NCBI GenBank assembly: GCA_050302075.1 | Contig: JBNLAH010000003.1 | Coordinates: 4,484-68,483, forward strand | Reading direction: 5' to 3' | Length of the DNA: 64,000 bases | Origin: Parachlamydiales bacterium | Lineage (GTDB): Bacteria > Chlamydiota > Chlamydiia > Chlamydiales > SM23-39 | Shown here: positions 47,141 to 48,426 of the stretch, in pieces | How the letters are laid out: each line of letters starts with the position of its first letter | Position numbering within the stretch: the first letter of the stretch is position 1 | The notes under the pieces: generated by a model | Seen by the model: the letters and a program-made list of their open reading frames with translations, nothing else | Told to the model about the DNA's origin: nothing | The model's database searches: none | Translations under genes and position numbers: made by a program

Positions 47141-48133
47141 TTAAAATTCTTTAAAACTTTTTATCCAATTTATTGCCTCTTTTAAAATCTTTTCGTCATT
47201 TTTTGAGGAGACATATAAATCTGGATTGATTATTTCTGAACAAATTTTTTTATCCCAAGACGCAATTCGAGATGATGTGACAAAAAGAAGAGTCCCGTCA
47301 TTAAGTTCAAACATTTTAGTACTATTAGCAAAACCAGCGGAATACTCCCCAAAGACCTTAGAAAATCTGCTTCTTAAAGCTATCGCTATGATTTCTCCTG
47401 AACTTGCTGTTGATCTACCTATAAGGATTGCAATAATAGGCTTATTACGTTTTACCTCATAATAATTTTTATCAGGCATTGAAAGTTGAACACTGCTACC
47501 CTGTTTCACAGTCCCATTTTCATAGGAAAACGGAATATATTTATTTTCTGAGTCAGTAAAATATCCCAATACTTTGTTTCCAGTAATTGCACCCAGCCCC
47601 AGCAACATCGGCCATAAATTACCGCCCTTATTATTTCTTAAGTCAATAATCCAGCTATTCACATCTGTGCTGTCAATTTTCTTGATAATGTTCTGAAGAT
47701 TTTGAGCATACTCTTGGTTTAATGATATATCCAAGCTTGGACACGAGGGCATGCTTATGTAACCGATTCCCTCTTCTATTAGCTTCCCTCTAATTTCATC
47801 ATTTAGCAGGGAATTTCTCTGACCTACTTGGTTTGGACGAAGTATAAATCCATGCTTATCGCCAACTTTATACAGTAATTGGTTTATTATTGGATAAACT
47901 TCATCAAAGGATTGACATAAGCTTGCCTTACCAAAAAATTCTTTCTCTATTTTCTTCCAATCAACTTGATCCTTGTAAACTGAATGCTTTTTTACAATAG
48001 AGATAACTTCATGTATATAAGCATGCACTTTATGCCTATCAAAAATTCTTAATGAAGAAATCCAAGATAATATCCCAACTACTGATAAAGCTATCATGAA
48101 AAATAAAACATAATAGGCTTTTAAAAATTTCAT
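47141..48133 (-). CDS. Membrane-anchored S41 family serine peptidase (no obvious PDZ; NSR-like architecture)
   Basis: 330 aa. N-terminal TM helix (YYVLFFMIALSVVGILSWI). IIDLRNNKGGNLWP. Catalytic-serine motif GRSTASSGEIIA, typical of S41. Confidence 0.8.
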   Translation of the reverse strand: MKFLKAYYVLFFMIALSVVGILSWISSLRIFDRHKVHAYIHEVISIVKKHSVYKDQVDWKKIEKEFFGKASLCQSFDEVYPIINQLLYKVGDKHGFILRPNQVGQRNSLLNDEIRGKLIEEGIGYISMPSCPSLDISLNQEYAQNLQNIIKKIDSTDVNSWIIDLRNNKGGNLWPMLLGLGAITGNKVLGYFTDSENKYIPFSYENGTVKQGSSVQLSMPDKNYYEVKRNKPIIAILIGRSTASSGEIIAIALRSRFSKVFGEYSAGFANSTKMFELNDGTLLFVTSSRIASWDKKICSEIINPDLYVSSKNDEKILKEAINWIKSFKEF

Positions 48134-48243
48134 AAGGTTTTACATATATTATAAATCAAAAGGTAAACATCACTAGTTGGGAATTATCTTAATTTAAATA
48201 ACTTAGTTTTAATGATTAAAAAGACTTCCAATTAAAAACTATG

Positions 48244-48426
48244 TCATCGAGGGCAACGACCACTACATTCACAACTACAACCACTAGCTGTAACAATTTT
48301 AGTAGGCCCCATATCCATTGCTTTGATCTTAATCTCTTGAATACGTAAATCAAGATCAAAAAAATCTTCATCCTTATTGAGTTCACTAATATATTCATTT
48401 TTAATAGCTATACCACGAATATCCAT
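48244..48426 (-). CDS. Candidate RiPP (lanthipeptide-like) precursor peptide
   Basis: 60 aa from the ATG at 48426, preceded by AAGGGAG at 7-nt spacing. Sequence: MDIRGIAIKNEYISELNKDEDFFDLDLRIQEIKIKAMDMGPTKIVTASGCSCECSGRCPR. Acidic leader with FDLD, and a C-terminal Cys/Ser/Thr-rich core. The ORF track begins at a TTG six codons upstream. Confidence 0.5.
   Translation of the reverse strand: MDIRGIAIKNEYISELNKDEDFFDLDLRIQEIKIKAMDMGPTKIVTASGCSCECSGRCPR

Follow-up and report, generated by a model that had tools for sequence, protein, structure and literature searches.

Among the described systems closest to the locus reported here are the NSR-type peptidases and the precursors of class I lanthipeptides. 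NSR-type enzymes bind peptide in a tunnel, and the His98/Ser236 catalytic dyad of SaNSR, the enzyme of Streptococcus agalactiae, has been defined by mutagenesis (PMC4698656). Orphan nisin-like core genes without nisB are documented and were judged probably non-functional by the authors who described them in a 2025 survey (PMC12506125). A review of the leader proteases of peptides that ribosomes make and that are then modified after translation (RiPPs) does not mention an S41 enzyme (PMC10885120), and chlamydiae go unmentioned in a lanthipeptide census of 2020 (PMC7268733). RiPP-like clusters are reported to be widespread in some chlamydial families (PMC9666466), and nisin-like clusters were 'also observed' in Chlamydiota in the 2025 survey (PMC12506125).

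Here we analyse a 64-kb stretch of chlamydial DNA (the window), which is public as contig JBNLDT010000008.1 of assembly GCA_050304555.1 and is also present in two further assemblies. Its minus strand carries a 60-aa open reading frame (ORF) organised like a class I lanthipeptide precursor (48244..48426), followed after a gap of 110 nt by a gene on the same strand for a 330-aa, PDZ-less S41 serine peptidase that is predicted to be membrane-anchored (47141..48133). An earlier note on this DNA proposed that the two genes might act together in production and immunity or in maturation of a lanthipeptide. Our analysis points to a peptidase of NSR type, whereas the pair is most likely not an autonomous lanthipeptide-producing locus, since no maturation enzymes, exporter or immunity genes were found in ~78 kb, the peptide has no homologue, and orthologues of the S41 gene occur without it.

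The NSR-type assignment of the peptidase draws on sequence, fold and conserved residues. Peptidase_S41 (PF03572; 80.7 bits, residues 123-307) is the sole Pfam domain of the 330-aa protein, with no PDZ domain found by Pfam, and the N-terminal hydrophobic stretch and the motif GRSTASSGEIIA at residues 239-250 are present. A PDB-wide sequence search returned SaNSR (4y68) at an E-value of 1.1e-18 over residues 39-306, ahead of the runner-up chain (E 1.6e-3) by 15 orders of magnitude. The AlphaFold2 model (pLDDT 86), in which helices at residues 33-90 precede the core, likewise had 4y68 as its top Foldseek match (E 6e-23, TM-scores 0.75/0.85, root-mean-square deviation 2.4 Å; the 0.85 is normalised to the target, with 299 columns of 4y68 covered), the runner-up standing at E 1e-14 and a TM-score of about 0.5. 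In a ten-member family alignment, the nearly invariant His94 (DKHGF; codon 47852..47854, minus strand) and the invariant Ser244 (TASSGEI; codon 47402..47404, minus strand) are conserved and align to the catalytic His98 and the nucleophile Ser236 (TASSAEM) of SaNSR (PMC4698656). Glu247 aligns to SaNSR Glu239, and a Phe occupies the position of the Ctp catalytic Lys. The NCBIfam models for CtpA/B/C/Z, Tsp, prc/Prc and CT441 scored 15-50 bits against cutoffs of 218-825. Because 4y68 is the best match in both sequence and fold, and because the protein has a His/Ser dyad but neither a PDZ domain nor the catalytic Lys, we classify it as an NSR-type S41 peptidase and not an ordinary Ctp/Tsp protease, in agreement with the earlier note.

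SaNSR cutting the nisin tail after the last ring provides a model for how the enzyme could act. The N-terminal hydrophobic helix would export the peptidase and anchor it at the inner membrane on the periplasmic side, and the helical bundle, cap and core would form a tunnel in which Ser244, activated by His94, would cut the peptides threaded through it. The conserved residues and the fold are seen directly in the alignment and the predicted model, while this topology and a peptide substrate are what we infer.

The nearest homologues of the S41 gene are two, at 72-73% identity, on contigs of the same GC (0.30-0.34). Relatives with 25-38% identity abound in Bacteroidota, Phycisphaerae and Proteobacteria, two collection scans having given 259 and 199 matches. 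One 72%-identical homologue (L004 1451-8561, and also L005) lies amid Fic, Bro-N, Schlafen/AlbA_2-HATPase and NUDIX genes, a context that resembles a mobile or defence island and suggests movement of the S41 gene among variable regions of this clade. A 37%-identical homologue on a metagenome contig (L007 1-7156, GC 0.46) lies ~3 kb from a cluster of non-ribosomal peptide synthetase or fatty-acyl type with AMP-binding, 4'-phosphopantetheinyl transferase, AAT acyltransferase, FAD oxidoreductase and large acyltransferase-methyltransferase genes. In seven loci of Puia/Chitinophagaceae (L013, L014, L017, L018, L022, L030 and L032), same-strand ORFs of 552-770 aa flank the NSR-like S41 gene on both sides. 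The immediate neighbours of 67 S41 genes represent 117 Pfam families, led by ABC exporters (7) and M28 peptidases (6), and no Lan family is among those listed. ABC_membrane was matched in 7/131 neighbouring ORFs and ABC_tran in 6/131, and these are probably the large flanking ORFs of the Puia/Chitinophagaceae loci; if so, the S41 context there is recurrent and distinct from the Firmicute nsr operon.

The small ORF starts with ATG, spans 60 codons, is called as a gene in the public annotation and is preceded by a Shine-Dalgarno-like AAGGGAG 7 nt 5' of its start (48434..48440, minus strand). It encodes a peptide with an acidic leader, FDLD at residues 23-26 and a GPT(K) junction at residues 40-42, and the last 19 residues hold four Cys and five Ser/Thr. 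These features, like the size, spacing, hydrophobic N terminus and missing PDZ domain of the S41 protein downstream, are as the earlier note had read them. No signal peptide was found on the peptide. Within its core, IVTASGCSCECSGRCPR, every Cys stands 3-4 residues after a Ser/Thr (T46/C50, S48/C52, S51/C54 and S55/C58; spacings +4, +4, +3 and +3), an arrangement that would be compatible with thioether rings. Codon usage is gene-like, with log-odds of 0.37 per codon against 0.284 ± 0.093 for real genes, and the ORF ranks 4/70 by this measure among ORFs of 50-90 aa, the two highest ranks being annotated small genes.

The NCBIfam model for FDLD class I lanthipeptides, NF038155, aligned residues 21-52 of the peptide at 15.3 bits (E 0.026), below its curated cutoff of 20 bits, so that the class I leader match claimed by the earlier note is borne out as an alignment of the leader but does not extend to the core or to family membership. 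By itself the leader reached 14.5 bits, and with Cys>Ala changes the peptide scored 15.7 bits, whereas an FDLD>AAAA mutation abolished the match and two shuffled peptides were unmatched. Subtilin cross-matched the same model at 16.0 bits, about equal to the peptide, and the nisin/gallidermin model TIGR03731 did not match the peptide. The null for chance occurrence was an order-3 Markov model of the window, from which 12 Mb of sequence was generated and ORFs of 45-120 aa were considered. An FxLD box was present in 0.16% of these and a tail with at least four Cys and at least four Ser/Thr in 0.066%; the two together did not occur in the 12 Mb, and the joint pattern is expected ~4e-4 times per 64 kb. 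Chance is thus an unlikely explanation for the pattern itself, with caution due over the codon bias and the repetitive Cys run considered below.

Other readings of the region and of the Cys-rich core were considered and set aside. A structured RNA or terminator accounting for the region is not supported, because the Rfam scan of the region returned tRNAs only and the hairpin where the small ORF ends does not exceed shuffled sequences in stability (z -0.72), leaving no convincing terminator between the two genes. Promoter-like matches around the locus are no more numerous than expected from shuffles, and the weak sigma-70-like TTAAAA-18-GATAAT between the peptide and S41 genes (48183..48212, minus strand) is a consensus match alone. 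A core of methanobactin/bufferin type (DUF692) or of radical-SAM type (SCIFF, sactipeptide) was rejected, given that no such enzyme is encoded in the window and that the peptide has no signal peptide.

The search for maturation, export and immunity genes covered ~78 kb, comprising the window and contig flanks of roughly 4.5 kb and 9.4 kb, in which every ORF of at least 120 aa was annotated by a precomputed or fresh Pfam scan. This region encodes pyrimidine and purine biosynthesis, a type III secretion system (T3SS), Suf proteins, sugar-nucleotide enzymes, penicillin-binding protein 2 and porins. Pfam detected in it no LanB (PF04738, PF14028), LanC (PF05147), LanM or kinase-lyase, no radical-SAM/SPASM, YcaO or DUF692 enzyme, and no peptide-exporting ABC transporter of LanT/LanFEG type or LanI; a regular expression for the LanC zinc ligands gave 0 matches. 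The absence of LanB, LanC, LanM and radical-SAM peptide-modifying enzymes that the earlier note reported for the window therefore holds and extends over ~14 kb of flanks. The unannotated proteins of 721, 286, 256, 185 and 184 aa have no Pfam match. Hidden Lan enzymes were sought among those of 721, 256 and 185 aa and rejected, as there was no Pfam, PDB, PADLOC or PHROG match of note, the PADLOC matches to the 256- and 185-aa proteins being weak (E 1.6e-4 to 6e-3).

Comparisons beyond the contig show that the small gene and the S41 gene are not a conserved unit. The peptide matched only itself when 5.8 billion clusters were searched by word index and when 1.84 billion representative proteins were searched exhaustively with phmmer, and tblastn against all fetched loci found nothing. 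Upstream of the two 72-73% identical S41 homologues lies a Fic gene or a helix-turn-helix gene, and a search there for remnants of the peptide gene revealed neither a Cys-rich ORF nor DNA similarity (z 0.8 and -0.5). We also scanned 165 more distant S41 loci, amounting to 2 Mb and 18,472 small ORFs, for an FxLD or LxLxKx5L leader followed by a Cys-rich tail. None of these loci contained an ORF with an FxLD leader and a Cys-rich tail, and as a candidate for conserved pairing in other phyla they gave one unrelated trio with GG leaders. The proposal of a conserved precursor-plus-S41 unit thus fails on both sides, with the small ORF kept in no relative by either protein database searches or synteny, and the S41 gene widespread without an adjacent Cys-rich peptide gene among the 72-73% homologues and the 165 loci.

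The trio belongs to a Flavobacteriaceae metagenome-assembled genome (L025 13428-14041, minus strand) and consists of three tandem small ORFs with a Bacteroidetes LxLxKx5L...GG leader and Cys-rich cores, one of which scored 16.4 bits against NF038153 (lant_leader_L1a), where the cutoff is 22. It lies ~4 kb from an NSR-like S41 gene, itself between pyrH and tsf-rpsB, with ribosomal protein genes intervening, and LanB and LanC were not found among the genes scanned at this locus.

Synteny identifies the locus as a 1.4-kb accessory cassette of an environmental chlamydia, placed downstream of tRNA-Lys where the genome is hypervariable. The closest relative (L175), whose ribosome recycling factor (RRF) is 96% identical, shares 94.6% DNA identity from frr through the tRNAs, and identity resumes at 82.8% from window position 47144, the third base of the S41 stop codon, through orf185, orf99 and orf256. 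The blastn break points define a cassette of 1,408 bp (47145..48552, minus strand) consisting of the peptide gene, 126 nt of upstream sequence and the S41 gene. In its place L175 has 437 bp of unrelated sequence save for the last ~80 bp, where a stop-interrupted remnant of S41 residues 304-329 remains (L175 1328-1405; 54% identity, E 6e-4). The S41 gene is accordingly ancestral at this site, and the L175 lineage has deleted it. The joint deletion of the two genes is the sole positive hint that they co-occur across genomes. The entire island is missing from the relatives whose RRF is 90% and 73% identical. L175 retains orf185 without the cassette, which indicates that orf185 is not tied to it. 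An integrative element at tRNA-Lys was considered and rejected, in that neither att-like direct repeats nor an integrase was found.

The explanation that we tentatively favour, at somewhat less than even odds, is that the small ORF is an orphan or relic, a species-specific precursor-like gene beside an independently functioning accessory NSR-type protease. It would then be a stranded or relic lanA-like gene, maturable only in trans, if at all, and the peptidase could be lost without consequence, as in L175. That the gene is a real class I-type precursor is suggested by the joint leader and core pattern, the gene-like codon statistics and the theme it shares with the neighbouring enzyme family. 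Several points weigh against this explanation, and they pull in two directions. A species-specific ORF without homologue also looks like a chance or de novo ORF, and the NF038155 match is sub-threshold and, as the variants show, driven by the leader, with the core adding nothing. The HMMER E-value of this match is optimistic, since AT-richness makes codons for F, D and L common in this genome, and the TGT/AGT stretch behind the Cys run is quasi-repetitive and could come from slippage. Conversely, no other protease family is known to cut a class I lantibiotic, and its presence beside a class I-like precursor is a thematic match that favours a functional link for which this explanation does not account; LanB and LanC may be encoded elsewhere in the genome, beyond the ~78 kb searched. 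If the former points were decisive, the small ORF would be a functionless product of chance or de novo origin whose resemblance to a precursor is a coincidence in AT-rich, slightly repetitive intergenic DNA, and only the S41 gene would be real, encoding an accessory periplasmic protease unrelated to lantibiotics. We consider this unlikely but a serious competitor. It would account for a peptide that is homologue-free among 15 billion proteins and is missing from all relatives as well as upstream of the closest S41 homologues, for the lack of local maturation genes, and for an NSR-like S41 family that is common in Bacteroidota, Phycisphaerae and Proteobacteria with no lantibiotic context; an overlapping same-strand junk ORF, also of 60 aa, indicates that such lengths arise by chance here. 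It does not readily explain why both hallmarks coincide in a single ORF, given the expectation under the null, which the NSR-type neighbour lowers by further orders of magnitude, nor the codon usage in the upper range of real genes, the strong Shine-Dalgarno sequence at ideal spacing and the failure of shuffled peptides to match the leader model.

If instead the small gene were functional, as in the reading of the earlier note, it could encode a class I lanthipeptide with LanB/LanC and an exporter elsewhere in the genome, and the NSR-type peptidase would serve in self-protection or in leader or tail processing. The FDLD leader match and the Ser/Thr-to-Cys spacing, which fits four thioether rings, speak for such a product, as does the x-x-T-x-S-x-C pattern in the N-terminal part of the core, which resembles ring A of nisin and subtilin. 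Further in its favour are a weak BLASTP alignment to a microbisporicin precursor, over leader and early core (E 3e-4 in a single comparison), the NSR-type fold of the neighbour, and the loss of both genes together in L175. Class I precursors, however, are almost always clustered with their own enzymes, and here no Lan enzyme, ABC exporter or LanI/LanFEG lies within ~78 kb, S41 orthologues occur without any precursor, the cassette is dispensable, and immunity by proteolytic destruction of what the cell itself produces would be unusual. The nisin-like clusters observed in Chlamydiota (PMC12506125) add some plausibility, but the review of RiPP leader proteases in PMC10885120 includes no S41 peptidase, and on balance we regard a functional class I lanthipeptide as improbable. 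The same low probability attaches to the broader proposal of a genuine lanthionine-type or otherwise Cys-modified chlamydial peptide with its enzymes elsewhere and the NSR-type S41 protein as its dedicated processing or self-protection protease. Improbable too, and slightly more so in our view, is an undescribed two-gene system, in which an unmodified or otherwise modified Cys-rich peptide would be the dedicated S41 substrate and trimming of its leader or tail would release a small metal-binding or signalling peptide. Same-strand adjacency across 110 nt with no convincing terminator (hairpin z -0.72), joint presence or absence relative to L175, and tunnel binding of peptides by NSR-type enzymes (PMC4698656) would fit such a system, but the peptide has no signal peptide, whereas the protease is predicted to be extracytoplasmic, the pairing is absent from all other ~170 S41 loci, and the likeness of the leader to class I leaders would be left unexplained. 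We thus retain, tentatively, the orphan or relic gene beside an independent protease.

The surroundings of the pair are those of a chlamydia-type genome with adjoining tRNA genes, as the earlier note had recognised. The contig carries T3SS genes, three MOMP-like porins and rpsB-tsf-frr, and the relatives of its RRF are labelled Chlamydiae, Parachlamydiales and Simkaniaceae, which identifies it as chlamydial. Directly upstream of the pair, tRNA-Lys(UUU) and tRNA-Glu(UUC) (48725..48880, minus strand) mark the edge of the variable region. On the 3' side of the S41 gene, orf185 (46467..47024, minus strand) encodes a 185-aa tail-anchored protein of unknown function and has its own Shine-Dalgarno sequence, and the minus-strand run of peptide, S41 and orf185 genes ends at a bidirectional terminator with a perfect 16-bp stem (46393..46432). 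Two small plus-strand genes nearby (44771-45049, 92 aa; 46066-46365, 99 aa) look by eye like paralogues, sharing SFPxE..LFxC and AIKDCA motifs, and acidic ORFs of unknown function lie interleaved with them on the minus strand. Small ORFs on the same relative strand occupy the corresponding place in two relatives (L172, 93 aa; L175, 100 aa). The region of the 92- and 99-aa genes looks like a lineage-specific, fast-evolving island.

Elsewhere in the window, three tandem paralogous porin genes of Legionella_OMP/MOMP-like type lie at 37804-41869, where the relatives examined have two. A complete-looking operon for de novo purine synthesis (purF, purN, purD, SAICAR synthase, purH, purQ, purL and purM) occurs together with carAB and pyrBI, an autonomy in biosynthesis that is unusual for a chlamydia; these purine and pyrimidine genes lie at window positions 21190-32103 and at L009 287-7163, which covers the window start and its upstream flank. 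In the conserved cluster that includes tsf and frr, pyrH is usually located between these two genes. It is not found there in the rpsB-tsf-frr segment of the window (48934-51222), where the gap is 77 nt.

In a related chlamydia with 73% identical RRF (L176 18549-20552, GCA_002773835.1), a 125-aa ORF is followed by MbnB_TglH_ChrH (DUF692) and HvfC_N genes. In RiPP systems of the methanobactin and bufferin types, peptides that contain Cys are modified by the DUF692/HvfC_N pair. RiPP machinery for the modification of Cys peptides is thus present in this chlamydial clade, though not in the window. Together with published reports of RiPP-like and nisin-like clusters (PMC9666466, PMC12506125), this pair shows that the earlier note's description of the phylum as not known for RiPPs was overstated.

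What the locus implies depends on the fate assigned to the peptide. A dedicated pair, if real, would for the first time give an S41 peptidase a part in RiPP maturation or immunity and would represent a lanthipeptide from an obligate intracellular phylum; should the small gene be functional, class I-type lanthipeptide biology would reach Chlamydiota and a new role would fall to the NSR-type S41 fold. If it is an orphan or relic, the locus offers a clean example of precursor-like genes stranded in hypervariable tRNA-proximal islands and a warning for precursor-centred genome mining, in that sub-threshold leader matches in AT-rich genomes need support from enzymes and conservation. The result for the peptidase is independent of the peptide's fate and shows that NSR-type proteases also occur outside the resistance operons of Firmicutes. 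With hundreds of Bacteroidota/Planctomycetota homologues outside any lantibiotic context, the NSR-type fold is widespread and unexplained in Gram-negative phyla.

Compared with SaNSR (PDB 4y68; PMC4698656), the chlamydial peptidase is alike in being an S41 enzyme without PDZ domain, built from a helical bundle, cap and core, in its dyad (His 94 vs 98, Ser 244 vs 236; TASSGEI vs TASSAEM), in Glu247 (Glu239 in SaNSR), in the conserved GGN172 and in a predicted N-terminal membrane tether. The two differ in that their identity is only about 25%, the ring-binding Met173/Ile174 are replaced by Leu/Trp and no lipobox Cys is visible in the chlamydial enzyme. The BceAB-type transporter (NsrFP) and the two-component system (NsrRK) of the nsr operon are absent beside it; around it lie the small ORF, tRNA genes and ORFs that are lineage-specific and have no Pfam match. 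The host is a chlamydia, and the nearest S41 relatives belong to Bacteroidota, Phycisphaerae and Proteobacteria and not to Firmicutes. With the Ctp/Tsp/Prc proteases, including chlamydial CT441, the peptidase shares the S41 core fold (Foldseek E 1e-10 to 1e-14), but it lacks a PDZ domain, has Ser/His in place of the Ser/Lys dyad and reaches TM-scores of only 0.4-0.57, and its scores with the NCBIfam Ctp, Tsp and CT441 models are 18-50 bits where the cutoffs are 525-825.

For the peptide, we take the precursors of nisin, subtilin and microbisporicin, with their F(N/D)L(D/E) leader box, as the class I comparison set. The peptide resembles class I precursors of the NF038155 family in having FDLD ~18-20 residues before a Pro-containing junction, a short core of Cys and Ser/Thr with Ser/Thr 3-4 residues before Cys, and a size of 60 aa. 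It differs from them in a 20-residue N-terminal extension ahead of the FDLD box and in a dense C-x-C-x-C core unlike known class I cores, and it has neither homologues nor LanB, LanC, LanT or LanP nearby. The orphan nisin-like core genes (PMC12506125) offer a further parallel, as they too are precursor-like genes with no dehydratase gene in their neighbourhood. Those genes, however, are clear nisin homologues from Firmicutes and Actinomycetota, whereas the chlamydial peptide is homologue-free and is encoded beside an NSR-type peptidase.

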